Positions 35,122 through 51,818 of a DNA stretch of 64,000 nucleotides are shown piece by piece. The position numbers and the translations under genes were made by a program. The notes beneath the pieces were generated by a model that did not search any database, was not told the DNA's origin, and saw only the letters and a list, made by a program, of their open reading frames with translations. Position 1 is the first letter of the stretch, and each line of letters starts with the position of its first letter. The stretch comes from a virus (lineage: Duplodnaviria > Caudoviricetes), in IMG/VR virus record IMGVR_UViG_2882837327_000005, positions 39,211 to 103,210 of that record; one strand, written 5' to 3'.

Positions 35122-36064
35122 GGGCGGTGGCCACCGGAGCGTGGACCTCAGGCCGGCCGAACCCAATGGAGCGGCGCGCTTGGTCAGGGTTCTGGTTGGC
35201 CCATTCCTGGACGAACCAGAGCTGGCCACAGCCGCCGCCGATCGTGTCCTGGCCGGCGGGGTCGAAGACCCGGACATCAAAGCCGAGGCCCAGCAGCTTG
35301 TCGCCGAACCCGGTGGCCAGCCGGCGCTGGTGCTCATTCGTCGCGGGCAGGCCTTCCGACCTCTCGCAGACCACCGAGACCGTGGCGTTCCACACCGTGG
35401 GGTGGAAGAGCTTGGCAAGACGCTCGGCGTCGATGTCAGCGCTGTTCTCGTCGTGAGCGCAGTAGTTGAAGAACGGCCGGCGGCCGGTGGCCTGCGCCCA
35501 CTCCGCGCCGCGCAGCGCGATGTCCCAGAGGCCCAGCTTGCGCTGGAAAGGGATCAGCTTGTCCCGGGCTTCATCGGTGCTCTCGTGCACGGAGAACTGC
35601 AGCCCGACGGTAGGCACCCGGACGCTAATATCCACGACATCGGCGAAAGCCTTGCCGATATCGGGCGCCGAGGTCGAGATCAGCAGCGCCGCGCTGGGAT
35701 ACATGGCGTACAGCCGCTCGATGGCCGGGATCAGGCCGGCCAGGTTCAGCAACGGCTCGCCCATGGACATGAACATGATCTGCAGGCGCTTCATTTCGGC
35801 CGGCGCGACGCCCGTCTCGGCGATGCAGTGCTCGACCTGCGCCACGATCTCCTCGGCGCTGAGCGAGCGCGCGAAGAAATCGCCCGCGCCGCAGAAGCGG
35901 CAGCCCATCGGGCAGCCGCTCATGGTCGAGCAGCAGATGACGGTCCGGGTGGCATAGTCCGGGTAGCGGTAGAGTACCGCTTCGGCGACCGCCGTATCCT
36001 TGGTGAAGACGAACTTCGAGACGTTCTGCGCGGGATCCTGGATCTCGCGGATGCTGTTCCACAT
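35114..36064 (-). CDS. RlmN/Cfr-like radical SAM RNA methyltransferase, lacking the N-terminal domain
   Basis: TVICCSTMSGCPMGCRFC, MSMGEP, IGGGCGQL. Confidence 0.8.
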   Translation of the reverse strand: MWNSIREIQDPAQNVSKFVFTKDTAVAEAVLYRYPDYATRTVICCSTMSGCPMGCRFCGAGDFFARSLSAEEIVAQVEHCIAETGVAPAEMKRLQIMFMSMGEPLLNLAGLIPAIERLYAMYPSAALLISTSAPDIGKAFADVVDISVRVPTVGLQFSVHESTDEARDKLIPFQRKLGLWDIALRGAEWAQATGRRPFFNYCAHDENSADIDAERLAKLFHPTVWNATVSVVCERSEGLPATNEHQRRLATGFGDKLLGLGFDVRVFDPAGQDTIGGGCGQLWFVQEWANQNPDQARRSIGFGRPEVHAPVATAHA

Positions 36065-36123
36065 GGGGGGGCCTCGGGGGCAGGAAGGTTGCGTATGGGC
36101 TGAGTGACGCCGGCATGGGCCGG

Positions 36124-36447
36124 CTACAGGTTGTCCTGCAGCCGCCCGGTGCAGTGGGCGAGCCGCTCTGCCAGGCTCTTCAGCGCCTCGATCTCGCATG
36201 ACAGCTGATCCAGGAGGCTTTCCTCGCTGCTGCGCTTCTGGAGATCGCCAGCACCGCCGACAGGGGCGGGGCCGAAGGTCCTGTCCAGCTTGCGCTCCTG
36301 CTCGCTGACGTTGCTGCCAATGCGAGAGCTGATCTGGGAAAGCTCGCCGATGAGCGTGGCGAGACGCCCGGGCGGCCGGGGGGATTCATCTCCAGCGCCG
36401 GCGGAATAGCCGCCGAAGCCGCGCGGGAGGGTGCCCATGCCGCTCAT
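36124..36447 (-). CDS. Hypothetical protein
   Basis: 107 aa, coupled to tmk. Confidence 0.55.
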   Translation of the reverse strand: MSGMGTLPRGFGGYSAGAGDESPRPPGRLATLIGELSQISSRIGSNVSEQERKLDRTFGPAPVGGAGDLQKRSSEESLLDQLSCEIEALKSLAERLAHCTGRLQDNL

Positions 36448-37317: not shown

Positions 37318-37394
37318 TGGATGCGGAAGTTGGATTTGAACCAACGACCTCCTGGTTATGAGCCAGGCGCGCTACCGGACTGCGCTATCCCGCA
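37318..37394 (-). tRNA. Phage tRNA with CAT anticodon (Met-like, atypical identity elements)
   Basis: TGCGGGA-TA-GCGC-AGTCCGGTA-GCGC-G-CCTGG-CTCATAA-CCAGG-AGGTC-GTTGG-TTCAAAT-CCAAC-TTCCGCA-T-CCA cloverleaf. Confidence 0.92.
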
Positions 37395-38598: not shown

Positions 38599-38660
38599 CA
38601 GATCACCCTGTCCATGGCCCTGCGGGTAGCATGCGGCGGCACGCGCCGCCTAGTGTAAAA

Positions 38661-38674
38661 CACATCTAAATGTG
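38661..38674. promoter_or_regulatory. Operator palindrome in the divergent ssb/early region
   Basis: CACATctaaATGTG inside a longer imperfect inverted repeat GTGTAAAA...TTTTTACAC. Confidence 0.75.
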
Positions 38675-38693
38675 TTTTTACACGGTTTTGACC

Positions 38694-38722: not shown

Positions 38723-38748
38723 GGAGGGGTTCGGAGGGCATTGCCCGA

Positions 38749-38810
38749 CCTCAGCCGCGCCATCTCGGTGCGGCGCGCCCAGCCGGCGGCGTGTTTCGCC
38801 GGCGAAGAGG
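38749..38810 (+). ncRNA. Variant type III hammerhead-like element 1 (G3-C8, G15.1-C16.1)
   Basis: CCTC-A-GCCGCGCC(atctc)GGTGCGGC-GCGCCCA-GCCGGCG(gcgtgttt)CGCCGGC-GAA-GAGG. Confidence 0.7.
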
Positions 38811-38818
38811 ACATACCA

Positions 38819-40006
38819 ATGCCCGACACCAACATCATGGACACGAACACCGGCCGCATCGGCGCACGCAGCGTCGATGTCAGCAGGGGCGCCCTGGACG
38901 GCTCTGTGAGCAGCCAGTGGTTCGCCCGGCCCGATGACCAGCGCTTCCTGACCCTCGAAGGCCTCTTGGCCTCCGTGGAGCAGCGCAGAGAGCGCAGCAT
39001 CGTGAACACCCTCGACACCCGTTCCATCGGGGTGCGGGGCAGCAGGGAGGATGAAACCCTCCTGCAGCTCATCACCCCGGACGGGATGATCGCCCCCAAC
39101 AACTGGTCCTTCGGCCAACTCTGCTCCCGCGTTGGCGCGCCTGCGGGCTTCCTGCGCACGCTTCGGCTGGCGCCGGCGGTCCTGCAGGAGCGTCTCGAGC
39201 GCTCGGATGCCGAGCAGCTGAAGTTCATGCGCACCATCAATCCCGACGGGACCGAGGTCGCTGAACTCCGCGCCGTCACCGGCGTGGATTATGGCCGGGT
39301 GTGGGACGAGGAGGTGGTTCGCGCTGTCATGGGCATCGCCAGCGATGGCACCTGGAAGGTTCCGGGCGTCATCAACTGGGGTAAGGGCACCTACGACCCT
39401 TCGGCGCCGGTCAGCAGCGAGAGCACCACGCTCTACGCCTCGGACCGCGACGTGTTCATGTTCCTGTGCCGCGACGAGTACCCGATCGAGGTCGGGAAGC
39501 TCCGCAACGGCGACCCTGACTACATGTTCCCGGGCTTCATCGTCTCCAACTCGGAGACGGGATCCCGGGCGCTGACCATCGAGACGATGTATCTCCGCGC
39601 CGTCTGCATGAACCGCAACCTCTGGGGTGTGGAGAACAAGCAGACCGTCCGGATGCGTCACTCCAAGGGGCTGCCCTCCCGCTTCGCGGCGGAGGCCGGC
39701 CCCACCCTGCGCCAGTTCAGCCAGGCCTCCGCGTCCGCGGTCGCACAGAAGGTGATCGCGGCGAAGGGCACCATCATCGGCAAGGACGATGATGAGGTGA
39801 AGGATTTCATCCGGAAGCAGGACTTCAGCATCAAGTCGACCGAGCAAATCATGGCCTCGGTCTACGGTGAGGAAGGCCATCCGGCCCGGTCCGTGTGGGA
39901 TGTCGTCCAAGGCATCACCGCGAAGGCCCGGGAGATCCGGCACCAGGATGAACGCGTGGACATGGAGCGCAAGGCCGGCGCGCTGATGAACAGGATCAAG
40001 GTCTGA
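38819..40006 (+). CDS. DUF932-like protein
   Basis: VSSQWFARPDDQRFL, TTLYASDRDVF, NSETG, VCMNRNLWG; ATG follows GAGGA of element 1. Confidence 0.75.
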   Translation: MPDTNIMDTNTGRIGARSVDVSRGALDGSVSSQWFARPDDQRFLTLEGLLASVEQRRERSIVNTLDTRSIGVRGSREDETLLQLITPDGMIAPNNWSFGQLCSRVGAPAGFLRTLRLAPAVLQERLERSDAEQLKFMRTINPDGTEVAELRAVTGVDYGRVWDEEVVRAVMGIASDGTWKVPGVINWGKGTYDPSAPVSSESTTLYASDRDVFMFLCRDEYPIEVGKLRNGDPDYMFPGFIVSNSETGSRALTIETMYLRAVCMNRNLWGVENKQTVRMRHSKGLPSRFAAEAGPTLRQFSQASASAVAQKVIAAKGTIIGKDDDEVKDFIRKQDFSIKSTEQIMASVYGEEGHPARSVWDVVQGITAKAREIRHQDERVDMERKAGALMNRIKV

Positions 40007-40040
40007 CACCCGGGCCCGGGGGCTTCACAGCTCCCGGGCC

Positions 40041-40102
40041 TTTCTCGTCACCCCATCACGGGGTGGCCCGCCGAGCGCCCCCGGATCGGGGCGCGAAAGG
40101 AA
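40041..40102 (+). ncRNA. Hammerhead-like element 2 (C3-G8, A15.1-U16.1, CUC triplet)
   Basis: TTTCT-C-GTCACCCC(atcac)GGGGTGGC-CCGCCGA-GCGCCCC(cggatc)GGGGCGC-GAA-AGGAA. Confidence 0.75.
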
Positions 40103-40109
40103 TGCGACA

Positions 40110-40445
40110 ATGCAAACCGAACAGGAAACACCCGCGGCACCGGCAGAGCCGGAGACCGAGGCGAACCCCTACCGGTTCGAAATGAGCTTCCAGCCCGCAC
40201 AGGCAGCCATCTATCTGCTCGCTCGGGTCGCCGATGGCGATTTCGTCGATTGCATCGAGGCCCGCGAGGCTCTCGCCCGCTGGAAGAGCTGTCTCGCCAC
40301 GGAAGCCAACGCCGACGCCATCGAACAGCTGTCCTCCGACGAGGTGGAGTTCGACGACCATGGCGTTGCCGTGGTCGAGGCCGACGGCGGCTACTGGATA
40401 CAGGGCTGGCTGTGGGTTGAGCAGGAGGCTGAGAATGCCGACTGA
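40110..40445 (+). CDS. Hypothetical acidic early protein
   Basis: 111 aa directly after element 2. Confidence 0.65.
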   Translation: MQTEQETPAAPAEPETEANPYRFEMSFQPAQAAIYLLARVADGDFVDCIEAREALARWKSCLATEANADAIEQLSSDEVEFDDHGVAVVEADGGYWIQGWLWVEQEAENAD

Positions 40446-40689
40446 CCTCACCGCCGAATGCCTGGCTGGCTACGACGCCCCGAAGGGCGCGGCCTGCCCC
40501 TATATGTTCAGCAGTTCATCCTGGCTCGCCTGGATGGCTGGCAGGCGGGTTGCCGGAATGTCCCGACCCACCGCGTGCCGATCCAGCCGCGGTTACTCCG
40601 TCCGCATTAAAACCGCTGGCGGCTCTCAGGTACTCGTCGCCTTCGCGGGCCCGGACCTCACCGAGATCACGATGGACCGGGCGCCATGA
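40435..40689 (+). CDS. Hypothetical protein
   Basis: AGGAGG RBS; MPTDLTAEC... Confidence 0.55.
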   Translation: MPTDLTAECLAGYDAPKGAACPYMFSSSSWLAWMAGRRVAGMSRPTACRSSRGYSVRIKTAGGSQVLVAFAGPDLTEITMDRAP

Positions 40690-40880
40690 AACGCGCCGAC
40701 GCCCTCAATGCGATCCGCGCCGCCGGCGCACAAGGCGACCAGCAAGCGTTCATGCGGCTCTACGTCGAGAACCGCGTCAGCAAAAGTGCGGCTGACGCTG
40801 CCTGGCGGGAGGGCCAGAATCTGGCCCGCTTCGTCAAACAGCGCGACGCCAAGGAGGTGTCTCGTGACCCAGTCGCCTGA
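40686..40880 (+). CDS. Hypothetical protein
   Basis: 64 aa, coupled (ATGA). Confidence 0.55.
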   Translation: MKRADALNAIRAAGAQGDQQAFMRLYVENRVSKSAADAAWREGQNLARFVKQRDAKEVSRDPVA

Positions 40881-41079
40881 CCTCTCCACCGTCGCCACCC
40901 GCACCCCGGCCACGACCTGGGACGGGAAGCACGACGTGCTCCCCTCCGCCCGGGCCCAGTTCCGGGGCAGCGATGTCCCGCCTGAGGCCTTCCGCGCTCC
41001 TGCCAACTTTGCGGCCAACGCCGCACTGGTCGGCCTGTGGAAGATCATCGGCGACTTCACGGTCCGGCACCGCCGCTGA
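40864..41079 (+). CDS. Hypothetical protein
   Basis: AAGGAGGT RBS before GTG 40864. Confidence 0.45.
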   Translation: MTQSPDLSTVATRTPATTWDGKHDVLPSARAQFRGSDVPPEAFRAPANFAANAALVGLWKIIGDFTVRHRR

Positions 41080-41085
41080 CGTGAA

Positions 41086-41337
41086 ATGACGAGGCCCCCT
41101 ATAGAGGTGCGCGTCACCCCATGGGTCAACGTCGAAGGAAACCCGCTCTGGCATGGCTCGCGTATCGCGGCTTACCGGATCTGGATCGAGTTCGACGGAC
41201 GCCACTGGTACCAGTGCCATGAGTGGGAAAACCGCCACGGCAACCGGGAGCGGTGGACCGACAGCTGGATCAACGGTCTCCGTGGCTTTCCGCCACATGC
41301 GACCGTCCCAGCCGCCAGCGATCCCCCGCCACCATAA
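41086..41337 (+). CDS. Hypothetical Trp-rich protein
   Basis: 83 aa; stop directly before a hairpin and element 3. Confidence 0.45.
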   Translation: MTRPPIEVRVTPWVNVEGNPLWHGSRIAAYRIWIEFDGRHWYQCHEWENRHGNRERWTDSWINGLRGFPPHATVPAASDPPPP

Positions 41338-41359
41338 CCGCCGCCCCTCCGGGGGCGGC

Positions 41360-41423
41360 TCCTCCGTCGCCCCATCCTGGGGCGGCGCGCCCAGCCGGCG
41401 GCGTGTCTCGCCGGCGAAGAGGA
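41360..41423 (+). ncRNA. Hammerhead-like element 3 (G3-C8)
   Basis: TCCTC-C-GTCGCCCC(atcct)GGGGCGGC-GCGCCCA-GCCGGCG(gcgtgtct)CGCCGGC-GAA-GAGGA. Confidence 0.7.
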
Positions 41424-41431
41424 ACACCACC

Positions 41432-41857
41432 ATGCCGATCGCGAAGCGGTGCAGAAAATGCACAGGTTCGAATTGCGGTGCGGAAGCCACAGCAAATTGG
41501 GATGTCGAGAGCCAAAGCTGGGTCCTGGGCACGCTCCACACCAACACCTGGTGTGACGCCTGCGAATACGATGACCCCGGTCTGGTCGATGTCGAAGTCA
41601 GCGAGAACCTGGTCGAGGACTTCCAGCTCGAGATCTGGCGCGGCGACGACAACGAAGGGCCCATCACCCGCATCGTTGTTGCCTGCGTGCTGTTCGACCC
41701 GGAGGAAGCTGGCATCTCCTGCCCGAAGCACGTCTTCGAGGAGGAAGCCGACATCACCCGGCTGCTGACCATCGCCCGACAGAGCGAGCGCAGCGACCCG
41801 TTCGACGACAAGCTCCCCAGCGACGAAGCCATCATCACGGCCGCGCTGAACCTCTGA
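41432..41857 (+). CDS. Zinc-ribbon hypothetical protein
   Basis: CRKC...WCDAC; ATG after element 3 RBS. Confidence 0.65.
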   Translation: MPIAKRCRKCTGSNCGAEATANWDVESQSWVLGTLHTNTWCDACEYDDPGLVDVEVSENLVEDFQLEIWRGDDNEGPITRIVVACVLFDPEEAGISCPKHVFEEEADITRLLTIARQSERSDPFDDKLPSDEAIITAALNL

Positions 41858-41881
41858 CCTGGGGCGGCCCTGCGCCGCCCC

Positions 41882-41939
41882 CCTCGTCGCCCCATCATGG
41901 GGTGGCCCGCCGAGCACCCCCGGATTGGGGTGCGAAAGG
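41882..41939 (+). ncRNA. Hammerhead-like element 4 (C3-G8)
   Basis: CCT-C-GTCGCCCC(atcat)GGGGTGGC-CCGCCGA-GCACCCC(cggatt)GGGGTGC-GAA-AGG. Confidence 0.75.
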
Positions 41940-41948
41940 ACCGAACCT

Positions 41949-43100
41949 ATGTTCGACAACGCTTTCAAGGACAATATCGTCGGCGCCGTGAGCTGCGATG
42001 CGCAGTTCCTCCGGGCGGCCTTGGATAAGGCCTTCCTGGCGGTGAATGCGAAGCTGAAGGTCCCTGCCCTGCACCATGTGCTGGTCAGGAACGACAAGCT
42101 CTACGCCACCGACATGGAGATGATGATCTTCGTCGATCTGCCCCCGGGCAGCTGCTCCGGCTCCGCGTTCCTGACTGACCCCGAGCGCCTCCTCGCCATC
42201 CTCAAGACTGCGGATGGCCGCATCACGGTCGAGGGCCGACGCCAGGATGTGAAGGACGGCGACGCCATCTGCTCCATCTTGGTGCGGGCCGGCGATGCGT
42301 CGATCTGGTCACCCAGTTGCCCGGTGGAAGACTTCCCGGCGCTCGATCGTCTCAAGGAGGCGAAGGAGCGACTTACCCTCACGGCCGAGCAACTCGCGCT
42401 CGCCTTCAGCTGCGTCGCCCCGGCGATCAGCACTGAGGCAACCCGCTACTATCTGAACGGCATCTGCTTCGACATGAGGAGCGAGCCGGCGGGATTCACG
42501 ATGGCGGCCACCGATGGCCACCGTCTCGCGACCTTCGACTTCCCTGTCGAGCCCAAGGTCGCCATGAAGCCCATCATCCCGAAGCTGGCCATCACGTCGC
42601 TGCAGAAGCTGCTCAAGGGCAGCCGCAGCGACGTGCTGCTGAAGATCGGCGACACAAGGGCAGAGTTCTCCTCTGCCGACTGGGCGCTGACGACGAAGCT
42701 CATCGACGGCAGCTTCCCCGAATACGGTCGGGTGGCTGCCACCAGCTTGGAAAGCAAGGGCACGGCCAATTGGGTCGTGTCCGCTGACAAGGCGGCCTTC
42801 GCCAGCACGCTGGCAAGGGTCCATATCCAGGGAAAAAGCGCCCCGGTGAAGCTCACCTCGTCCGGCGAGCTGGTCAGCGGCAATCAGGTTGATGGCCAGG
42901 CCAGCGCGCCCATCTCCGGCGCTCTTATCACGGGCGTCCCTCAGGATGTGGGCTTCAATGGGAAGTACTTCGCCGAGGCGCTGAAGAGCGCCCCGGGCGA
43001 CCGTATCTCCCTTTTCTTCCAGGATCCGGGTGGGCCCTTCTTGCTGAAGGTGCCCGGCCGGGATGACTGGAGCACTACGCTCATGCCCCTGCGGTTGTGA
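41949..43100 (+). CDS. dnaN: Phage-encoded DNA polymerase III beta clamp homologue
   Basis: ATDME, STEATRYYLNG, ATDGHRL, LIDGSFPEY, GFNGKYF, LMPLRL. Confidence 0.9.
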   Translation: MFDNAFKDNIVGAVSCDAQFLRAALDKAFLAVNAKLKVPALHHVLVRNDKLYATDMEMMIFVDLPPGSCSGSAFLTDPERLLAILKTADGRITVEGRRQDVKDGDAICSILVRAGDASIWSPSCPVEDFPALDRLKEAKERLTLTAEQLALAFSCVAPAISTEATRYYLNGICFDMRSEPAGFTMAATDGHRLATFDFPVEPKVAMKPIIPKLAITSLQKLLKGSRSDVLLKIGDTRAEFSSADWALTTKLIDGSFPEYGRVAATSLESKGTANWVVSADKAAFASTLARVHIQGKSAPVKLTSSGELVSGNQVDGQASAPISGALITGVPQDVGFNGKYFAEALKSAPGDRISLFFQDPGGPFLLKVPGRDDWSTTLMPLRL

Positions 43101-43128
43101 GCAACCGGCCGAGGGTCATCCCTCGGCC

Positions 43129-43185
43129 TCTCGTCGCCCCATCGCGGGGCGGCCCGCCGAGCGCCCCCGGATGGGGCGCGAAAGG
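43129..43185 (+). ncRNA. Hammerhead-like element 5 (C3-G8)
   Basis: TCT-C-GTCGCCCC(atcgc)GGGGCGGC-CCGCCGA-GCGCCCC(cggat)GGGGCGC-GAA-AGG. Confidence 0.72.
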
Positions 43186-43193
43186 ACAACCCC

Positions 43194-43697
43194 ATGCATC
43201 TTTCCGATGCCATCGCACTTGCGGTCGCGCAGCTGAAGGCTGAGCGCGAAATCGCGGTGGGCTGCTACTTCGCCCCCGGCGCATCCAGGGACGACCTGAG
43301 CAGCCTCGACGACACGGAGCGCGAGCATCTGGCCGGTCTCAATGCCGCTATCAGCGCGCTGGAAACGGCGTGGCCGGTGGCGGTCGAGAAGATCTCGGCC
43401 GGCGCCCACGCCATTGCTAGCCTGGCCGAGAGCCGGCTGGAGGACATGCACGCCGACGCCGAAAGCCGCCACGAGAAGCAGATTTTCCGCTGCACGAACT
43501 ATGTGGCCGCAATCGACCGCGTGCGCGAGTTTCGCGCGGGGCTGGAGCACGTCATGCCCGACCCGCCGCTCTGGGACTACGATGTCCGGGACAGCCTTCG
43601 GCACCATGCCGAGGAACACGGCGTCGACCTGGAAGCAGCGATGACCGCTCACAGCGACACGGGTGAATGCCCGTGCTGCGCCAATCCATCAAAATAG
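43194..43697 (+). CDS. Hypothetical early protein
   Basis: 167 aa after element 5; C-term CPCC. Confidence 0.65.
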   Translation: MHLSDAIALAVAQLKAEREIAVGCYFAPGASRDDLSSLDDTEREHLAGLNAAISALETAWPVAVEKISAGAHAIASLAESRLEDMHADAESRHEKQIFRCTNYVAAIDRVREFRAGLEHVMPDPPLWDYDVRDSLRHHAEEHGVDLEAAMTAHSDTGECPCCANPSK

Positions 43698-43717
43698 GAT
43701 CAAGAACCTATTTATAG

Positions 43718-43746
43718 TTGCAATCGTAGGTATTTATTGGTAATAT
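43718..43746 (+). promoter_or_regulatory. Sigma70-like promoter
   Basis: TTGCAA-17 nt-TAATAT in an AT-rich patch. Confidence 0.55.
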
Positions 43747-43793
43747 TACTTTGTTGGTGAGGAATTAACTTCATCGACATTGGAGAAATACCA

Positions 43794-44021
43794 ATGAAGA
43801 TCGCACTTCCGGCCATTGTGGTATTGGTCGTGGCGGCTTCCCCGCCGGTCGCGCCGGCTCCGATCAAGAGCCTGGACGCGCTGATGGACGAGTTTTCCTC
43901 CGAGTTGGAGAAGCTCGCCCAGATCGAGGACGACGATGCCTTCATGCAAGCCGTCCTCAGCTACCTCTCCCCGCTGCCCGGTCCGCCGGCCAGCTTGGGG
44001 GTGCCCATCTACCCGATGTAG
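43794..44021 (+). CDS. Small protein with signal-peptide-like N-terminus
   Basis: GGAG RBS, MKIALPAIVVLVVAA. Confidence 0.55.
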   Translation: MKIALPAIVVLVVAASPPVAPAPIKSLDALMDEFSSELEKLAQIEDDDAFMQAVLSYLSPLPGPPASLGVPIYPM

Positions 44022-44047
44022 CGCCCCACCGCCCAGCTACTGGGCGG

Positions 44048-44109
44048 TCCTCCGTCACCCATCATGGGTGGCGCGCTCAGCCGGCGGCGCGTTTCGTCGG
44101 CGAAGAGGA
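44048..44109 (+). ncRNA. Hammerhead-like element 6 (G3-C8)
   Basis: TCCTC-C-GTCACCC(atcat)GGGTGGC-GCGCTCA-GCCGGCG(gcgcgttt)CGTCGGC-GAA-GAGGA. Confidence 0.7.
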
Positions 44110-44119
44110 ACCCCACCCT

Positions 44120-44242
44120 ATGGCACCCATCGCCATCCGCCTGGCCGGCATTGTCGGCCGTGCTGTCTGCGCCGCGGCCATCGCCGTCATTGTGACCCGC
44201 AGCAGCCCCGCCCGCCGGCTGGCGCGGCGCGACAACACCTGA
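44120..44242 (+). CDS. 40-aa hydrophobic/basic peptide (not in ORF track)
   Basis: MAPIAIRLAGIVGRAVCAAAIAVIVTRSSPARRLARRDNT; ATG after element 6 RBS. Confidence 0.5.
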   Translation: MAPIAIRLAGIVGRAVCAAAIAVIVTRSSPARRLARRDNT

Positions 44243-44396
44243 TCGAAGCCGCCTCGGGCGGCTGCCGCCCTCCCCCAGGGTGGCCCGTTGAGACAGGGCC
44301 TGGGCACTTCCCTACCCCAACCCAGGATAGACCCATCAGCGGCAACTGAGGGCCTTGCCGGCGCATGCACCCCCGTGCGCCTGGTAGGGCCCTCCC

Positions 44397-44457
44397 CGTC
44401 CGCGGCGCTCACGACGAGCGCCGCCCGCCGACGCCCCCGGTTGAGGGGCAGAAGACG
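44397..44457 (+). ncRNA. Hammerhead-like element 7 (sequence-divergent; C3-G8 with G15.1-C16.1)
   Basis: CGTC-C-GCGGCGCTC(acgac)GAGCGCCGC-CCGCCGA-cGCCCC(cggttga)GGGGCa-GAA-GACG; C-A mismatch at the base of stem II. Confidence 0.55.
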
Positions 44458-44482
44458 CCCCGATCCGGGGATGGAGACATTC

Positions 44483-44773
44483 ATGGAACTCGTTCATGAC
44501 CTGATCGACCCTCGAGAGGTATATTCTCACATCGAGGATGACCGGGTTCGAGAAGCGTGCATCTACGGCCGCCGCAGTGATTACATCACCGTGCACCGGC
44601 AGCGCACGCGCCTGTATGACGCCAGCATCGCCCATCAGAGGCGGCTGGCGAACGATCCGAGAGTTACGGTTGAGGAGCGGCGCATGCTCCTGGAATACAC
44701 CCACTTCCTGCGGAATAATCTGCATGATCCGGACCTGTTCCTGCAGTTCTTGCGCCTCTTCTGGTTGACCTGA
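44483..44773 (+). CDS. Hypothetical protein
   Basis: GGAG RBS; MELVHDLID..., 96 aa. Confidence 0.6.
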   Translation: MELVHDLIDPREVYSHIEDDRVREACIYGRRSDYITVHRQRTRLYDASIAHQRRLANDPRVTVEERRMLLEYTHFLRNNLHDPDLFLQFLRLFWLT

Positions 44774-44801
44774 CTACCCCGCCCGGCCCCCTCCACCGGG
44801 C

Positions 44802-44858
44802 GGCCTCAGCCACCCCCACGGGTGGCGCGTTCAGCGCGGACCACTGCGCGAAGAGGCC
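44802..44858 (+). ncRNA. Hammerhead-like element 8 (G3-C8, U6)
   Basis: GGCCTC-A-GCCACCC(ccac)GGGTGGC-GCGTTCA-GCGCG(gaccac)TGCGC-GAA-GAGGCC. Confidence 0.65.
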
Positions 44859-45085
44859 TACCAGCGAACTCGAGCTGGCGTCGCTCCCCTATACTATTCC
44901 ATCACCAGGGTGAGTTCGGAGCCACCGGCCCCCTGCCCCAGCGAGGCAGGCGCCGCCGCGCACCGTAGCGCGCGGAGAAGGAAAGTCGCCTCGTTCTGGG
45001 CAGCCCGCATCCGTCGTGGACGGTCGCTCTGCAGAAAGCCCTGGAACCGCCGCTTGGCCGCGGCGCGCGAACGAGATCAATTGCC

Positions 45086-45122
45086 ATAGCCCCTGAGACC
45101 AGCCCGGTCTCAGGGGCTATTT
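45086..45122. terminator. Terminator hairpin between the early array and the convergent repressor gene
   Basis: Perfect 15-bp stem ATAGCCCCTGAGACC/GGTCTCAGGGGCTAT. Confidence 0.75.
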
Positions 45123-45872
45123 GTCTTCCAGGATGCTCGCCATGACGACGCGGCCCCGGATCTGGACGCGCATGCCCTCGCTGTCCCACCAGCCGCCGTC
45201 ATAGGGCCACTGCTTCATGGCGATCTGGCCGACATGCGCCTTGTTGTGGGAAGCGAAGACCAGCTTAACGCCGCCGTCGTCTTCCACCTGGATCTGGCGC
45301 ACCGTGACCTCGTGCTTCCCGCTGTCGTTCTTGCGGTGGACCAGCACCCGGTCGCCGTTGGCCAGCGGCCTGACGCCGGGCGTGCCGAAGCCCACGATCG
45401 CGACCACCGTGCCCGGGTGGTAGAAGCCGTTGGCGTGGTCGTCGGTGACGAGGACTGCCTCATCGATCTCGAGCGGCGGCGGGATGGCGAAGTTCTCGTC
45501 GGCACGGCCTGGCACCTCATAGCGCGGCCGCCACTGGCCCGAGGCGGCCTGCACCGTGACGGGAATCACCAGCGCCTGGCGCGAGCTGATGGGCGCCTCG
45601 CCCATGATCTCCGCGACCGTGGCGTTTGCGGCCTTGGCAAGCCGATCCAGCGTGCTGAGGCTCAGCATGCGGGTGTGGCCGTTCAGGAAGTTGTAGATGG
45701 CATTGGGCGTCGGAAGCCCGGCCTCCGTAGCCCAAGATGTTGGTGTGCGATCAGTTTCCGCCATGAAGGTTCGGAGAGCTTTCCGCTTCGCATCGCTGCG
45801 GTCCTCACGCTCCACGCGCGCCGCCGCCTTGCCGCGGGGTTGACGCCCGCTCATCTCGCCGCCAATTGCCAT
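45117..45872 (-). CDS. CI-like prophage repressor (start may be 45854)
   Basis: XRE-like HTH (WATEAGLPTPNAIYNFLNG) plus S24-like C-domain; divergent from a cro-like gene. Confidence 0.75.
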   Translation of the reverse strand: MAIGGEMSGRQPRGKAAARVEREDRSDAKRKALRTFMAETDRTPTSWATEAGLPTPNAIYNFLNGHTRMLSLSTLDRLAKAANATVAEIMGEAPISSRQALVIPVTVQAASGQWRPRYEVPGRADENFAIPPPLEIDEAVLVTDDHANGFYHPGTVVAIVGFGTPGVRPLANGDRVLVHRKNDSGKHEVTVRQIQVEDDGGVKLVFASHNKAHVGQIAMKQWPYDGGWWDSEGMRVQIRGRVVMASILEDK

Positions 45873-45880
45873 GTGTTTTC

Positions 45881-45894
45881 CACATAAAAATGTG
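45881..45894. promoter_or_regulatory. Operator palindrome at the cI/cro junction
   Basis: CACATaaaaATGTG. Confidence 0.75.
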
Positions 45895-45907
45895 ATAGAC
45901 CGGTGTG

Positions 45908-46183
45908 ATGCGACGCAATACCCCGACCGTCAGCGCCCTGCTGAAGCAGCTGGAGGACGAAGCCCTTGCAAGGGGCCTGTCCCGAGCCGAGCTCGCCGCC
46001 CAGGCCAACCTGCACGTCAACACCCTGCGGGGCTTCGGCCAGCAGAACGAGCCGCGACGGGGCGCGGGACGCACTCGCGTCAGGGAGCATCACTGGAATC
46101 CCACGCTGTCTACCATCCTGGCCATCGAGTCCGTATTGGTCCGAAAAGTGGTTCCGTCCTCTAAACCTGTGGTTAAAGCATAA
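45908..46183 (+). CDS. Cro-like HTH regulator
   Basis: GLSRAELAAQANLHVNTLR...WNPTLSTI. Confidence 0.7.
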   Translation: MRRNTPTVSALLKQLEDEALARGLSRAELAAQANLHVNTLRGFGQQNEPRRGAGRTRVREHHWNPTLSTILAIESVLVRKVVPSSKPVVKA

Positions 46184-46187
46184 CTCT

Positions 46188-46718
46188 GTGTCGGGTCCAG
46201 TCCGATTCAAGACAGGAGCCACTTTTCAGCCGCCCGGCGCGCCCGCGGCGCCGCGCCGGAAGCGTTCCTGGAACCGCCATCCTGAATCGGTGATGCAGTC
46301 GAACTGCGTGGAGATCTTCGACCGCGCGGTGCCGGCCGGCACTGCCTTCCTCTACGCGGTGCCGAACGGCGGGCGCCGCGACGGCCTCACAGGCGCCATC
46401 CTGAAGGCCGAGGGTGTGCGGGCCGGCGTGGCCGACCTGGTGCTGATGCTGCCCCGTGGCCGCAGCGTCTACATCGAGATGAAGGTGGGCGGCGGCCAGA
46501 GCATCAGCGGCGTGAAGGTGGCCAAGGGCTACCAGAGCGATACCCAGCAGGGCTTCCAGGCCACCGTGGAAGCCCTGGGCTTCCGCTACGTCATCTGCCG
46601 CTCGGAGGCGGAGTTCGAGGCGCTGCTGATCGAGGAGGGCGTGCCGCTGCGGTTCCGCACGCATGTCGCGGCACGCTCCTCGGCCAAGCCGAGAAGCTCA
46701 TCGGCCGAGATGTCGTAG
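46188..46718 (+). CDS. VRR-NUC domain nuclease
   Basis: AVPNGG, GVRAGVADL, IEMK, QS..Q..F; start uncertain. Confidence 0.8.
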   Translation: MSGPVRFKTGATFQPPGAPAAPRRKRSWNRHPESVMQSNCVEIFDRAVPAGTAFLYAVPNGGRRDGLTGAILKAEGVRAGVADLVLMLPRGRSVYIEMKVGGGQSISGVKVAKGYQSDTQQGFQATVEALGFRYVICRSEAEFEALLIEEGVPLRFRTHVAARSSAKPRSSSAEMS

Positions 46719-46900
46719 ATCTCGCACAGGCGCCGGGTCTGCCAGGCGCTGGGCATGGTGCGTCCATCCTCCACCTTCCACATGGCGACATAGCTGATCC
46801 CCAGGGCGGAGCCGACCTCCTTGAGGGACAGACCGCGCTTCTCGCGCAGCGCCCGTATCCTCGCGGCCAGTTCCGGCCAGGGGCTGCGTTTCGTGCTCAT
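46586..46900 (-). CDS. XRE family HTH regulator
   Basis: IRALREKRGLSLKEVG..LGIS....KVEDG..MPS. Confidence 0.8.
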   Translation of the reverse strand: MSTKRSPWPELAARIRALREKRGLSLKEVGSALGISYVAMWKVEDGRTMPSAWQTRRLCEIYDISADELLGLAEERAATCVRNRSGTPSSISSASNSASERQMT

Positions 46901-48105
46901 GCCGCGTCTCCTTCGTCTGCTGCTGGTGCCGCCGCCGCGCGCGCCATGAAGCGCTCGAAGCTGGCCATGTCCGGGAAGCCGTAGGGGAGAACCTCGGTGC
47001 CAAGGTGAGGCTGCAGCACCTTGGCGACGCGCCGCAAGACGGCCGGGTCACGCTCCCCATCGAGATCCTTCGGCCACCACCCCTCGTACTCGGCCGCCGC
47101 GGCGACCTTCATGGCCTTCTGGATCGCCGCCCGCTGCTTGGGGGTCACGTCCCAGTTGCCGGTCTGCTTGGGCGCACCAGGCGGCAGCGCCTTCTCGGCT
47201 GCATGGGCGGCGAGCACTGCCCTCCGGAAGTAGCTGAAGCTCCCAGGGGCATCGCCGCCGAATGCGAGCTTCGACGCCGTCAACTCGCGGACAACCCGCT
47301 CAGCCGTGACCTCGCTGACGCCCTGGCTGAGCCAGTTGATGACCTCCCGGAAATTGTAGCCACCTGTGCCAGGGAAGCCCGCAATCCTCGCCAGCTTCTC
47401 CCCCAACACCGCTCCCCTTGCGGCCATCGCAGCAGCGGATTCAGGCTCCGGCCCTGGTGCCTCGCGCGCGGATAGTGATTCCCCTTCGGAGTCCTGAGGG
47501 GGTTGGTTAGGAGTTATCTTAAGGGGAGATATACCTACGCGCGCGTTGGAGCCCCGGTGGGCTTCTCCGTGGGATACGTTTTGGGTTTCGGTGGCTTTTC
47601 GGTGGGTATCGCCGTGGGATACGTTTTGGGTATCCGTGGGAATTGATTGGGTATCGGTGGGTTTCCCGTTTGGGTATCGGTGGGTTTCCGCTGTGTGAGC
47701 CACCGCCACCGTCCGATCTGACACGAGCCGCAACGCCGGCCGCGCGGGCGATCCATCTTTGCGAGGCCTCCCGCCCAGTTTGGCATTCGCACGCTGGGCG
47801 GCGAGCTTCCGCTCGCTGATGCCGTGGAACACCTCCACGCGATAGCGGCCGCCCTCGTCTCGGTGCAGCACCTCGGCATCCCAAAGCACCTTGCCAGCGG
47901 CATGCACTTCCGAGAGCAGGCACCCTGCCAGTTTGGCCATCGCCTCACGCGGCTCGGCGCCTTCCGGCAGCGGCAGCCAGCCGTCACCATCGGCAGCCAG
48001 GGCCAGCGACAGCCAGAGGCTGCGCGCCGCCAGCGGCAGCGCCCGCAGCGCGGCCTCCGAAGACAGCCGGGCTACCAAGGCCTGAGGGGAATTCGCGCGG
48101 GCCAT
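46897..48105 (-). CDS. Phage replication initiator protein
   Basis: Directly downstream of dnaB; LAARSLW N-term, ANAKLGGRP, internal DNA repeats, SFSYF C-domain. Confidence 0.65.
   Translation of the reverse strand: MARANSPQALVARLSSEAALRALPLAARSLWLSLALAADGDGWLPLPEGAEPREAMAKLAGCLLSEVHAAGKVLWDAEVLHRDEGGRYRVEVFHGISERKLAAQRANAKLGGRPRKDGSPARPALRLVSDRTVAVAHTAETHRYPNGKPTDTQSIPTDTQNVSHGDTHRKATETQNVSHGEAHRGSNARVGISPLKITPNQPPQDSEGESLSAREAPGPEPESAAAMAARGAVLGEKLARIAGFPGTGGYNFREVINWLSQGVSEVTAERVVRELTASKLAFGGDAPGSFSYFRRAVLAAHAAEKALPPGAPKQTGNWDVTPKQRAAIQKAMKVAAAAEYEGWWPKDLDGERDPAVLRRVAKVLQPHLGTEVLPYGFPDMASFERFMARAAAAPAADEGDAA
47555..47690. repeat. Iteron-like direct repeats (putative phage ori)
   Basis: CCGTGGGATACGTTTTGGGT at 47567 and 47612; TTGGGTATCGGTGGGTTTCC at 47647 and 47670. 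Confidence 0.7.
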
Positions 48106-49625
48106 CAGCCATCATCCTCTGGCAGGTCGAAGAAGGCTGTCGTCGTGTCCTCGAAGCCGACGGTCTGCTCGAAGGTCTTGCCCTGGCGGCTTTTCGGGCA
48201 GGAGATCAGGGCCTTGCCCTTCGCATCATCCCGCCGGATGCGCCATTCCGAATGGCGTAGCTGAAAGGCCGCATCGTCCTCGTTCAGCTTCCGGAGCGGC
48301 TCATTCCGCAGCAGGTAGTAGTGCTCGCGGTACAAGAACATGATGACGTCGGCGTCCTGCTCGATGGTCCCGGATTCACGCAGGTCCGACATCTGGAGGC
48401 GCTTCTCCTCGCGGCTGTCGACGCCACGGTTGACCTGGCTCAGGGCGACCACGGGCACTTTCAGATCCTTGGCCAGCCGCTTGATGGCCCGGGTGATCTC
48501 GCCGATCGCTTCCGTGCGGCTGGCGGCCTTCTTTCCACCGATCGAAGGCGGCTCGGCCAGCTGCAGGTAGTCGATGAAAATGGCGTCGAGGCCGCCAGCC
48601 CGCTGAAACTGCCTGGCGCGTGAACGGATAGCCGCGATGGAGGAGCCCGCCTGCTGGTCCCAGTGGATTCCCATTGCGCGGAGCCGCCGGGCAGCATCCT
48701 CGACTGCGATTTGATCCTTCCGGCTGCTCTTGAGGCTGCGTCGGCTCCCATCCTGGAACTCGATATAGCCGTCGATGATGAGCTCCGCCGGCAGCCCGGA
48801 TTCCTGCGCGACCATGCGCTGGTATGTCTCGATCGCGTCCATTTCCAGGTTCGCGAAGTAAACTCGCTTTCCAGCGAGGCCGAGATTGCGCGCCATCGTC
48901 GCGCCAAGCGCGCTCTTACCAGCGCTGGATGGGGCCGCGATCACGTAAACCCGGGTCGGCCGCAGCCCACCGAGCCTCCGGTCCAGAGAGCGGATGCCAG
49001 TCGAGAGCCCGACTACCTCCCCGGGCTCGAGCCTCATTACCGCGGCAATGTGGCTCATGAACTGGTCATAGACCTGCGAATTGGTCAGCTGGTTCTCCGC
49101 GCCCGCTTGCTGCGCGCCCAGCTGAACCACGGACGTGTCGAGCCCATCCAGGATCTCGCGCGCGGTGGGCCCATGGGGGTCATAGGCCGCCGCCGCGGCC
49201 AACTCGCACGCCTCGATGGTCTCTCGCCGAAGCGCCATGTCGACCACGATGCCAGCGTATTCTCGGATGTTCACCGCGCCCACCGTCGCGCTCAGCAGCG
49301 TGGCGAGGTAGCGGGCGCCACCGACATCCTCCAGGCCCTGCTCCGCCTCGAACAGACCCTTCAAAGTGATCGCGTCGGCAGCCTTTCCGGCGCGGATGCG
49401 GTCAGCGATGGCTGCGTAGATCCGCGCGTGGGCGGCGTCGGCGAAGTGGTGGGCCTCCAGGATGTCGCCCACCCGGTCGAAGGCCCGGTTGTTCTGGAGA
49501 AGACCGCCCAGGACGGCCTGTTCGGCCTCCATACTGGCTGGCGGAAGGCGTAGCCCAAGCGTTGAGCCCGTAGGCTGGGAGGCATTTCCGAGAAGCGCGG
49601 CCCCAGGTCGCTGCTGCAGTGACAT
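48105..49625 (-). CDS. dnaB: Replicative DNA helicase
   Basis: EAEQAVLGGLL, APSSAGKS, IDYLQL, LSQVNR, SDLRESGTIEQDAD. Confidence 0.95.
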   Translation of the reverse strand: MSLQQRPGAALLGNASQPTGSTLGLRLPPASMEAEQAVLGGLLQNNRAFDRVGDILEAHHFADAAHARIYAAIADRIRAGKAADAITLKGLFEAEQGLEDVGGARYLATLLSATVGAVNIREYAGIVVDMALRRETIEACELAAAAAYDPHGPTAREILDGLDTSVVQLGAQQAGAENQLTNSQVYDQFMSHIAAVMRLEPGEVVGLSTGIRSLDRRLGGLRPTRVYVIAAPSSAGKSALGATMARNLGLAGKRVYFANLEMDAIETYQRMVAQESGLPAELIIDGYIEFQDGSRRSLKSSRKDQIAVEDAARRLRAMGIHWDQQAGSSIAAIRSRARQFQRAGGLDAIFIDYLQLAEPPSIGGKKAASRTEAIGEITRAIKRLAKDLKVPVVALSQVNRGVDSREEKRLQMSDLRESGTIEQDADVIMFLYREHYYLLRNEPLRKLNEDDAAFQLRHSEWRIRRDDAKGKALISCPKSRQGKTFEQTVGFEDTTTAFFDLPEDDG

Positions 49626-49870
49626 GCGATTGAAATTCCCCGAAATCCAAGCGCTTTTGTTGGACAGCCGAGGTCGTCGCGGCTAAGGTTTGAGCGCGCC
49701 ATCCCCGTTGGCGCCCACGCTGGCGGCACCACTGCCGCCGGATCGAACGCCTCCGCCGGCCAGGGCGGGGGCGTTTTCGCTTCCGACCCCCAGACCATAC
49801 GCACCGCCTCTGATCGTCACAAGGCGAATCTCGAAATGCTGTGCATTCCGTGTGTTAACTCGTGGTATTT

Positions 49871-49884
49871 CACATTGTAATGTG
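49871..49884. promoter_or_regulatory. Operator palindrome
   Basis: CACATtgtaATGTG between divergent dnaB and MTase genes. Confidence 0.7.
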
Positions 49885-49988
49885 TTATTGTTTTCTCAAG
49901 CCCTGGTAGGCTGACCGCACCTAGATCGCAAAATCTTGTGCCTGGAAGGCGTACCAAGGGCCGGGGCGGGAAGTTTGCCCTCCACCAC

Positions 49989-50052
49989 TCCTCCGTCACC
50001 CCATCGCGGGGTGGCGCGCTCAGCCGGCGGCGCGTCTCGCCGGCGAAGAGGA
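49989..50052 (+). ncRNA. Hammerhead-like element 9 (G3-C8)
   Basis: TCCTC-C-GTCACCCC(atcgc)GGGGTGGC-GCGCTCA-GCCGGCG(gcgcgtct)CGCCGGC-GAA-GAGGA. Confidence 0.7.
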
Positions 50053-50059
50053 CCGAATC

Positions 50060-50803
50060 ATGAACTCCGATTCAATCCGTGACGTGCTGGAAACCAGCTC
50101 CTTCAACGGGGCCAACCTGGTCCTGCCCGGCACGCTCACGCGTTCGGAATACCAGGCGGTAAACAAGGCCATCGAGGCCGCTGGCGGCAAGTGGGATAAG
50201 AAGGCCCGGGCGCACGTCTTCCCGAGGGATGCGCGCCAGGCTCTGGCGCCGGTACTCGCCGGGAGCGACCTGACCAAGCCACCGTCCCGGAAGAAAGAGC
50301 TTCAAGCCTTCTTCTCACCGCCCGGCGTGGTGGAGCGCGTTATCTCCCGCGCCGCCATCGGCCGGAGGGATCTGGTGCTGGAGCCCTCTGCCGGCCACGG
50401 CGCCTTGGCGCTTGCCGCGCAGGCAGCCGGCGGCCGGGTCGAGTGTTGCGACATCGACAGCGACCACGTCGACGAGCTCCGCCGTCTCGGGCTCAACGCC
50501 AGGATCTACGACTTCCTGAAACTGGCCCCGAACCCCGCTTATGACCGGGTGGTGATGAACCCTCCGTTCCGCAACCTGCAGGACGTGGATCACGTCACCC
50601 ATGCCCTCGGGTTTCTGAAGACCGGCTGCAGCCGCCTGGTGGCGGTGATGTCGCCAGGCTTCCAGTATCGGCAGACCAGGAAGGCGAAGGCCTTCAGAGA
50701 ACTGCTGGCGAGCCGTAACAGCCTCGTGGAGACCTTGCCCGAGCAAAGCTTCAAGATCGCAGGCACCAGTGTTTCAACGCTGCTCGTGACCATCACGGGC
50801 TGA
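50060..50803 (+). CDS. Amino (N6A/N4C-type) methyltransferase
   Basis: VLEPSAGHG (motif I) and VMNPPF (motif IV). Confidence 0.85.
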   Translation: MNSDSIRDVLETSSFNGANLVLPGTLTRSEYQAVNKAIEAAGGKWDKKARAHVFPRDARQALAPVLAGSDLTKPPSRKKELQAFFSPPGVVERVISRAAIGRRDLVLEPSAGHGALALAAQAAGGRVECCDIDSDHVDELRRLGLNARIYDFLKLAPNPAYDRVVMNPPFRNLQDVDHVTHALGFLKTGCSRLVAVMSPGFQYRQTRKAKAFRELLASRNSLVETLPEQSFKIAGTSVSTLLVTITG

Positions 50804-50829
50804 ACTTCCGCCCGGCCTTGGCCGGGCGG

Positions 50830-50892
50830 CCCTCCGTCGCCCCGATGCGGGCGGCGCGCTCAGCCGGCGGCGCGTTTCGTCGGCGAAGAGGG
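50830..50892 (+). ncRNA. Hammerhead-like element 10 (G3-C8)
   Basis: CCCTC-C-GTCGCCC(cgatgc)GGGCGGC-GCGCTCA-GCCGGCG(gcgcgttt)CGTCGGC-GAA-GAGGG. Confidence 0.7.
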
Positions 50893-50900
50893 AATACCCA

Positions 50901-51500
50901 ATGAACACCGCAACCGCCCTGGGCGACGACATCGTCGTCTACCGAAGCGACCGGATGGTTGGCAGCAGGATGTCGCTGGACGACGCCCGCGCCAATCTCC
51001 GGAGCGGCCTGCCAGGCGTCCTGGCGAGCCATATCGCGGCCTTTCACCCCGGCGCCGTCGTCGAATTCTGGACGGCACAGGGCGGCCGCCGATGGGTCGC
51101 CAACCTCACAGCCGACCTGGAGGGCTCGCCTCTGGAGCATTTCCAGAAACGAGCCCGGCCGATCACCACCTACATCCCAGATGCACCATGCGGCGACTGC
51201 CGCGGCCCGGATCGCGAGGATATCGACCCCGACGACGATGACCCCGACGATGACGAGGATGGCCGCATGACTTTCTTCGATGTGCACATCAACGCGCAGG
51301 ACATCATAGCCCCGCGCGCCATCCTCCGGATACGAGCCTACGACCATGACGACGCCAAGCGCCGCGTGCTCGAGAATTGGGGCGACTACGAGGAGGAGTG
51401 CTACGAGAACGCCATGGAGAGCGTCGAAATCCAATGCCAGGACGTCGAGTTCTCGGGTGACGAGGACATGATCGACGACATCCTCATGTCGGAGCACTGA
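50901..51500 (+). CDS. Hypothetical protein with very acidic C-terminal half
   Basis: 199 aa after element 10; DIDPDDDDPDDDED. Confidence 0.65.
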   Translation: MNTATALGDDIVVYRSDRMVGSRMSLDDARANLRSGLPGVLASHIAAFHPGAVVEFWTAQGGRRWVANLTADLEGSPLEHFQKRARPITTYIPDAPCGDCRGPDREDIDPDDDDPDDDEDGRMTFFDVHINAQDIIAPRAILRIRAYDHDDAKRRVLENWGDYEEECYENAMESVEIQCQDVEFSGDEDMIDDILMSEH

Positions 51501-51789
51501 AACGCCGCCGGGCCAGCCCCGGCGGCATAGCCGCCCCACTACCTGCCAAGGCGGCCCGTCGATACGGCAGGACAGGAGACAATCCATCTCCATCACAGAA
51601 CCAGGCCTCTCCGGCCTGCAGAGCCTTCTTCCCGCCATCTGGGATGAGGCCATCGCCTGGGTCGCGCTCGCGGCCAGCCTTGGGATCGACATCGTCTTGC
51701 TGACGATCATCCCCTGGCTCCTGGGCCTGATCCGGTAACCATGTGCCCCTGGGACGCGCTAACGCTGCGTCCTAGGGGCACATTTCTAT

Positions 51790-51818
51790 TTGCAATCCAC
51801 ATTTCAATGTGTTTTTGT
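51790..51818 (+). promoter_or_regulatory. Promoter-like TTGCAA with operator palindrome (51798-51811) in the spacer
   Basis: TTGCAAtc-CACATttcaATGTG upstream of the recombination operon. Confidence 0.65.

Follow-up and report, generated by a model that had tools for sequence, protein, structure and literature searches.

What are the folded RNA elements that punctuate the early genes of a Rhodovarius prophage, and do they cut the transcript that carries them? The prophage lies in a window of 64,000 nt (the whole stretch of the viral record IMGVR_UViG_2882837327_000005 analysed here, whose positions are used throughout), in which ten folded elements of ~60 nt are found on the + strand before the early genes. 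A preliminary description of the sequence had reported ten such elements, assigned them the layout of type III hammerheads and proposed that they divide the early transcript into gene-sized RNAs. We recover all ten at the coordinates that it claimed, nine of them robust and one, at 44396, decayed. The family is very probably derived from hammerheads. The best reading of the elements is that they are diverged type III hammerhead ribozymes serving as the standard 5′ leader cassette of the prophage early genes, a proposition that we regard as evenly balanced; for self-cleavage that would free the Shine–Dalgarno (SD) sequence, our confidence likewise stands halfway.

Fold and conservation of the junction

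The cassette runs from the stop codon of the upstream gene through a GC hairpin (P0), the 5′ strand of stem III (usually CCUC), an unpaired C or A, the stem I hairpin, a 7-nt core S-C-G-Y-N-S-A, the stem II hairpin, GAA and the 3′ strand of stem III, which is the SD sequence GAGG(A), to the ATG. The SD sequence (GAGGA or AGGA) constitutes the 3′ strand of stem III in eight window copies, with the ATG 6–10 nt further on. P0, a GC hairpin of 6–12 bp that follows the upstream stop codon, abuts seven window copies with zero gap and is missing from the two copies that open an operon. As it has no T run, P0 was ruled out as an intrinsic terminator.

All nine robust window copies fold into a three-way junction with joiners of 1 nt (H17), 7 nt (positions 3–9) and 3 nt (positions 12–14). 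The ten elements divide, as had been described, into six with the type A core GCGYYCA (38748, 41360, 44048, 44803, 49989 and 50830) and four with the type B core CCGCCGA (40041, 41880, 43127 and 44396); GAA, G5 and A9 are constant among them, and pair 15.1–16.1 is A–U in three and G–C in seven. A covariance model trained on the six type A copies alone (R1) recovers three type B copies with 31–39 bits (E values of 1e-5 to 8e-8) and has no further matches elsewhere in the 64-kb window. In a second covariance model (R2), from which the bit scores of elements are quoted unless R1 is named, the reverse strand scores far below the + strand. The motif is absent elsewhere in the 5.3-Mb assembly, its copies being confined to 38.7–50.9 kb of the window. 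Over nine copies, 98.2% of the cells are paired and 11 of 19 pairs are changed on both sides, a result that 0 of 500 shuffles reached. Stem III comprises just 3 bp in two type B window copies. The seventh element (44396–44458, +; type B, partly read by eye) is marginal, with 12 bits in R1 and 24.8 bits in R2. It retains the core CCGCCGA and is a decayed copy, because its G10.1–C11.1 pair is lost, its stem III (CGUC/GACG) is not the SD sequence, and a separate hairpin and SD sequence of its own lie downstream.

Further copies come from two sources. One of 100 relatives searched (G010) contains 20 matches and one weak match on two 10-kb contigs; these units share the anatomy of the window copies, with P0 abutting and an ATG 4–9 nt past stem III in 18 of 21. 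The metagenome contig L316 (Logan ERR12084931) adds four copies of 55–71 bits, which together with the 29-copy alignment from the two Rhodovarius genomes gives 33 robust copies. In the 29 copies the type III layout with its 1/7/3 joiners is kept, 94.7% of the cells are paired, 17 of 19 pairs show double changes, and covariation extends to all three helices, which bears out the compensatory changes claimed for the stems. The covariation score is 0.519, compared with 0.146 for shuffles and at most 0.103 for slid-partner controls. The second pair of stem I is U·G in 14 copies and C–G in 13, wobbles that fix the strand and place the conservation at the RNA level.

The junction itself is more strictly kept. 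Positions 3 and 8 form G–C in 24 copies and C–G in five with zero mismatches, and the L316 copies add two of each; the proposed joint swap of these positions is therefore without exception. All 29 copies have G at position 5, A at position 9, G10.1–C11.1 and G12–A13–A14. The base at position 17 is C (19 copies) or A (10) and never G, as hammerheads demand of H17, and that at position 7 is U (19), C (eight) or A (two). Eight junction letters are invariant (C4, G5, A9, G10.1, C11.1, G12, A13 and A14), and seven of them agree with the hammerhead consensus. Conservation of the core in homologues had been named beforehand as a check, and the junction letters are invariant in the G010 copies.

The genes that follow the elements differ between sources: only the DUF932 gene is common to the window and G010, and the DUF932 proteins of the three sources (window, G010 and L316) are just 62–66% identical. 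Because these genes are otherwise non-homologous, the element is a generic leader and not a gene-specific regulator. Three copies without an SD sequence or without a downstream gene (44803 in the window and a tandem pair at an end of contig C80 of G010) retain the core, and masking of the SD sequence therefore cannot be the whole function.

Model searches of the 100 relatives, of the genus with its 11 genomes and of 150 genomes from the family returned G010 alone; singleton matches at 33–36 bits were rejected, since they lie within apparent coding sequence. Pattern scans of IMG/VR (three patterns), GTDB genomes and JGI metagenomes, whose matches were vetted by covariance model or structural descriptor, gave only chance matches outside G010 among the matches listed. 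BLASTN of operon 1 against isolated phages gave nothing relevant, a related-locus search with the DUF932 protein alone found none, and a search of the 100 relatives with RF00008 found no canonical type III hammerhead.

Known hammerheads and the leaders of sister phages

The Rfam hammerhead models RF00008, RF00163 and RF02275-7 do not match the window family, whether the threshold is the gathering score or E ≤ 10 over 13 kb or over a 91-nt stretch, in line with the expectation that a standard motif search would miss the elements. This negative carries little information, because an active natural variant is missed as well: the element of phage Bcep176 (CUGCUGA … GAAA, in the gp32–gp33 spacer), found by pattern, escapes every hammerhead model at E ≤ 1 on the whole phage and at E ≤ 10 on a 151-nt stretch. 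Like the window family, it is a natural phage hammerhead with A6 changed to C, and it cleaves, far better with Mn2+ than with Mg2+ (PMC3088659, PMC7151607); it differs in being a single-copy type II element that retains U4, C3–G8 and A15.1–U16.1.

With type III hammerheads (RF00008) the window family shares an open stem III, closed stems I and II, joiners of 1/7/3 nt, a Watson–Crick pair 3–8, G5, a free N7, A9, G10.1–C11.1, G12–A13–A14 and H17 as C or A. It differs from them in having C4 instead of U, C or U at position 6 instead of A, mostly G–C instead of C–G at 3–8, predominantly G–C at 15.1–16.1, and the SD sequence as the 3′ strand of stem III. The genomic arrangement resembles that of the type II hammerhead clusters of prophages (RF02276; PMC3088659), in which one element precedes nearly every gene of a temperate-phage early operon and the scissile base lies between the 3′ hairpin of the upstream gene and the 5′ hairpin of the next. 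Those elements differ in being open at stem II, in P0 being stem III itself, in an SD sequence inside the CUGAGGAG box and in their canonical cores, whereas the core of the window family is altered. Perreault et al. (2011) described several hammerheads flanking single genes in prophages (PMC3088659), and the window likewise holds several motifs in the intergenic spacers of one prophage transcription unit (eight in operon 1, two in operon 2).

Sister phages were found through their shared DUF932 gene, with homologues at 53–70% identity. Their early genes are separated by spacers of 40–110 nt, and on all contigs almost all of these genes are preceded by a stop–hairpin–leader–SD–ATG cassette, the type of leader varying from contig to contig. 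Four of them (L303, L313, L314 and L315) contain 12–24 units each of the form C-GAA-A[hairpin]U-C-[hairpin]-[C/A/U]UGANGA-G, on the gene strand only. A scan of L313, L314 and L315 with Rfam Hammerhead_II (RF02276), a model whose stem II has 2 bp, gave two matches above the gathering score of 37, at 38.7 and 37.5 bits, and a further 13 with E < 1. In these type II units P0 is stem III, the SD sequence lies within the box named above, and the scissile C stands between the P0 and stem I hairpins, which is the place of the site predicted in the window. L313, L314 and L315 also contain canonical type III hammerheads (CUGACGA … GAAAC), 15–30 nt before start codons. It is because sister phages carry type II and canonical type III hammerheads at the homologous position of the cassette that we consider a hammerhead origin of the window family very likely.

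Two further sister contigs carry variant cores. L296 has seven type III-like units with the core CAG[A/C]NGA (A at position 4 in all seven, C6 in one), in which pair 15.1–16.1 is G–C and stem III has 2 bp. L301 has 14 units with the core CAGUCGC, in which position 4 is A, and one with CCGCUGC. Among the window family and these two, L296 alone retains A6. A model of the window family (R3) detects the units of L296 (seven copies, 27–47 bits) and L301 (21–35 bits) and detects neither the type II units of L303, L313, L314 and L315 nor the junction-free leaders of L297, L302 and L299. Because R3 detects the L296 and L301 units, we regard the three variant families as homologous, standing at the place that true hammerheads occupy in their relatives.

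The junction-free leaders, for which no Rfam match was found, are of at least two kinds. A second undescribed leader family, with ~11–13 copies per contig, occupies L297 (6.6–13.6 kb), L302 (5.1–13.1 kb) and some spacers of L299; in L297 and L302 it consists of GCCCCC, an inner hairpin GGGY-N3-GCCC, GUCGA or GUGGA with 2–4 nt, GGGGGC and the SD sequence, and the word CCGUCGA is common to it and to type B cores. A third type is seen in L299 (2.8–10.5 kb), where P0 is followed by CACC, a hairpin GCCGGC-AAUCCC-GCCGGC and then UCGCAAAGAGG; its loop motif AUYCC also occurs in stem I of the sister type II hammerheads and of the window family. More distant DUF932 loci at 48–51% identity (L309, L310 and L312, in G475, G427 and G385) carry another conserved leader before the DUF932 gene and the next gene, a long hairpin CGUGACGGG … CCCGUC(G/A)CG followed by GAGA and ATG.

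Self-cleavage weighed against other readings

In the preferred reading, the RNA would cleave its own backbone on the 3′ side of the unpaired base, in a reaction that is probably slow or confined to certain ionic conditions (Mn2+, for example). Stem III, of 4–5 bp, would then dissociate and release the SD sequence. The upstream message would end in hairpin P0 with a 2′,3′-cyclic phosphate, the downstream message would start with a 5′-OH on stem I, and each early mRNA would acquire identical protected ends and an identical translation start context. In RiboJ-type synthetic insulators and in RNase III processing of T7 early mRNA, a cut in the 5′ leader leaves every cistron with a defined end protected by a hairpin and with its ribosome-binding site exposed. 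The same logic is proposed for the window elements, where cleavage is a prediction; RiboJ is engineered from a canonical satellite hammerhead, and T7 relies on a host protein nuclease.

We give somewhat less than even weight to a more elaborate reading, in which the elements would be active ribozymes with a remodelled pocket (C4, Y6, swapped 3–8 pair and G15.1–C16.1), translation would be coupled to cleavage through release of the SD strand of stem III, and the gene-sized products could be joined by RtcB or circularised. Double-mutant scans would score this combination of changes as dead. The ends of the products (5′-OH and cyclic phosphate) could re-pair as stem III (CCUC with GAGG), and the RtcB of the prophage could therefore re-join or circularise them.

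An intact RtcB RNA ligase is encoded by the prophage on the minus strand of the window (29440–30795; Pfam RtcB, 218.6 bits), with a radical-SAM gene (35114–36199) and a tRNA gene (37321–37394) near it. RtcB joins a 2′,3′-cyclic phosphate to a 5′-OH, the ends that hammerheads leave; its role in this prophage may equally be tRNA repair.

For catalysis speaks the constancy of the catalytic and metal-site letters while the stems drift in three sources. The functional logic of the cassette fits, as do the canonical neighbours at the same position. Each deviation of the core, moreover, has a precedent or is the only swap that is tolerated: natural U3–A8 covariation, the weakly active A6C variant of phage Bcep176, a weakly active U15.1–A16.1 variant and a U4C viroid variant that stays viable have been reported (PMC3088659), C6 shifts the metal preference to Mn2+, and in one construct the shift was >10,000-fold (Naghdi et al. 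2020, PMC7151607), and in a type III hammerhead of which every single and double mutant was assayed, C3G and G8C rescue each other (Roberts et al. 2023, PMC9901934).

A considerable body of observations weighs against this reading. All 29 copies have C at position 4, where the hammerhead consensus has U; at position 6, where it has A, 11 copies have C and 18 have U; and its A15.1–U16.1 pair is G–C in 24 copies and A–U in five. As the preliminary description had noted for the window, every copy departs from the consensus at both U4 and A6; the replacement extends to each of the 33 robust copies, and neither U4 nor A6 turned up anywhere in the family, whose sources number just three (two Rhodovarius genomes and L316). 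A6C alone lowers activity in Mg2+ by orders of magnitude (PMC7151607), and changes of the CUGA turn other than the 3–8 swap give low activity without rescue (PMC9901934). The combination of U4C with A6Y is expected to be weak in Mg2+, and published mutagenesis thus argues against strong activity. In the L301 family position 9 is C, which can pair with G12, the general base, and this branch is probably not using hammerhead chemistry. Finally, L297, L299 and L302 use leaders without a three-way junction, and the cassette can therefore work without a ribozyme.

The same departures favour a hammerhead-derived but catalytically dead leader, in which the junction would be kept as a structured 5′ untranslated region that masks the SD sequence in stem III without any cutting; exposure of the SD sequence would depend on temperature, on ribosome standby or on translation upstream, and each cistron would be provided with stable hairpins. 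The core departs from the hammerhead where mutagenesis gives low activity (PMC9901934, PMC7151607), the sister family of L301 has C9, hairpin leaders without the junction serve L297, L299 and L302, and the SD sequence is paired within stem III in most copies. However, masking requires no invariant junction, and yet C4, G5, A9, G10.1–C11.1 and GAA are constant while all stems drift. The core is also kept in the three copies that have no SD sequence or no downstream gene, the stem III of 2–3 bp in many type B and L296 copies would mask poorly, and canonical, presumably active hammerheads stand at the same place in sister phages. We therefore judge a dead leader to be unlikely, if less so than recognition of the junction by a protein. 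In this latter alternative, which we consider improbable, an endoribonuclease or RNA-binding regulator of phage or host would read the junction and the conserved loop I (A-U-Y) and cut or regulate each early cistron, as RNase III processes T7 early mRNA. A junction sequence that is fixed within each phage (in the window family, L296 and L301) is what co-evolution with a protein would produce, the AUYCC of loop I reappears in sister phages both in type II leaders and in those that lack a junction, and many early genes have no known function. Against it, no candidate protein has been identified, the match of seven of eight invariant junction letters to the hammerhead would be needless for a protein site, and real hammerheads occupy this position in sister phages.

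A purely DNA-level role, with the elements acting as recombination linkers for the shuffling of gene cassettes between phages, is very improbable. It would account for elements that flank non-homologous genes in related phages, and the phages encode YqaJ/ERF-type recombinases; but the G·U pairs are valid on the + strand alone, the orientation of the elements always equals that of the genes, compensatory changes preserve RNA helices as the sequence drifts, and the spacing of SD sequence and start codon is fixed. Shuffling of cassettes may be a side effect rather than the function. Four other candidates were dropped: a kissing pair between loops I and II (compatible with type B alone), a K-turn or k-junction (G8, on which it depends, is absent from type A), a genome-wide repeat of the repetitive extragenic palindrome type (copies in the prophage only), and a ROSE-type thermometer or riboswitch (no Rfam match, and 10–21 copies per phage before unrelated genes).

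Early operons, individual cassettes and implications

The early region of the prophage encodes a DUF932 protein, a sliding-clamp homologue, a DNA methyltransferase-like protein and a YqaJ/RecE-like exonuclease (Pfam/PHROGs), and many of its genes have no known function. Two polycistronic + strand operons, bounded by strong terminators, contain the elements, which agrees with their proposed placement within the early transcript: operon 1 (~38.7–45.1 kb) holds eight and operon 2 (~49.9–51.8 kb) holds two, and the genes for DnaB helicase and a CI-like repressor lie between them on the minus strand. Operon 1 ends at a strong intrinsic terminator of 15 bp with a T run (45086–45120, +) and operon 2 at another (51741–51783, +).

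Operon 1 is opened by element 1 (38748–38811, +; type A, core GCGCCCA, 81.7 bits), which folds as described, lacks an upstream hairpin and has a predicted scissile site 3′ of A38753; its SD sequence GAGGA lies within stem III, and the ATG at 38819 starts the DUF932 gene (Pfam). That gene ends in a 12-bp P0 (40013–40040, +) abutting without a gap element 2 (40041–40102, +; type B, core CCGCCGA, A15.1–U16.1), which scores 71.9 bits and, with the model trained on type A alone, 38.6 bits; its predicted site is 3′ of C40046 and the ATG is at 40110. Element 3 (41360–41423, +; type A, 86.5 bits), abutted by an 8-bp P0 (41340–41359, +), has its predicted site 3′ of C41365 and the ATG at 41432. A 6-bp P0 (41863–41879, +) abuts element 4 (41880–41941, +; type B, stem III of 3 bp, 67.1 bits; predicted site 3′ of C41885), which precedes the sliding-clamp homologue (ATG 41949; Pfam DNA_pol3_beta). 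Element 5 (43127–43187, +; type B, 63.8 bits; predicted site 3′ of C43132, ATG 43194) follows a 7-bp P0 (43109–43126, +) directly, and element 6 (44048–44109, +; type A, 78 bits; predicted site 3′ of C44053) follows an 8-bp P0 (44029–44047, +) and leads a 40-aa open reading frame (ORF) with its ATG at 44120. Beyond the decayed element 7, a 7-bp P0 (44780–44802, +) abuts element 8 (44803–44857, +; 50.2 bits), a type A copy with the core GCGUUCA, a shorter stem II and an ACCA loop, whose predicted site is 3′ of A44808. No start codon lies within 50 nt of element 8, and the ~230 nt up to the operon terminator (44858–45085) hold no clear or convincing ORF; they may constitute a small RNA released by processing. 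Operon 2 is opened, without P0, by element 9 (49989–50052, +; type A, 88.2 bits; predicted site 3′ of C49994) before the DNA methyltransferase-like gene (ATG 50060; PHROGs). A 9-bp P0 (50808–50829, +) abuts element 10 (50830–50892, +; type A, 76.4 bits), with the predicted site 3′ of C50835 and the ATG at 50901.

Operon 1 is interrupted at 43698–44021 by an AT-rich island of ~95 nt and a 75-aa gene with neither leader element nor P0, which therefore look as if they had been inserted later, together with a promoter of their own. Downstream of the final gene in operon 2, a P0-like hairpin (51505–51526) is followed by a different leader (51530–51585), which contains the type B core word CCGUCGA, has no stem II, can pair its loop CUGCC with a downstream GGCAG and resembles the leader type of L297 and L302; an SD sequence AGGAGA and a 50-codon hydrophobic frame from 51586 without an ATG, GTG or TTG start complete this region (51505–51738). 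AT-rich control regions with inverted repeats ACACAT … ATGTGT lie at 38655–38690, 45870–45900, 49850–49890 and 51780–51815, preceding each early operon and adjoining the repressor gene; the starts of operons in L296, L299, L301 and L303 show these words as well, and the regions are probably repressor operators. Tandem 45-nt repeats (repeat family D7) with shorter GGGTATC/GGTGGG words at 47555–47690, inside a 402-aa minus-strand ORF beside dnaB, look like iterons of a replication origin.

The novelty claimed for the elements stands in part. The altered core is new, but the ten-copy array is not, as arrays of hammerheads in prophages have been described since 2011 (PMC3088659). What is new is a coherent family, present in multiple copies, that combines the core S-C-G-Y-N-S-A with G15.1–C16.1, the use of the SD sequence as the 3′ strand of stem III, and a graded series from canonical to variant cores in one phage lineage; all three variant families (window, L296 and L301) are absent from Rfam 15.

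If the elements cleave, U4, A6 and 15.1–16.1 can change together in a working hammerhead core, a combination that natural surveys and saturation mutagenesis have so far treated as non-functional, motif searches miss a class of ribozymes, and the cassettes would be a natural counterpart of synthetic ribozyme insulators, with translation gated by cleavage. If they do not cleave, they record a ribozyme turned into a purely structural leader, with living intermediates in the same lineage that lead from canonical type II and III hammerheads over CAGANGA to CAGUCGC and SCGYNSA. Either way, the lineage provides a compact natural series for testing the role of hammerheads in phage operons, a question that has stood since 2011.

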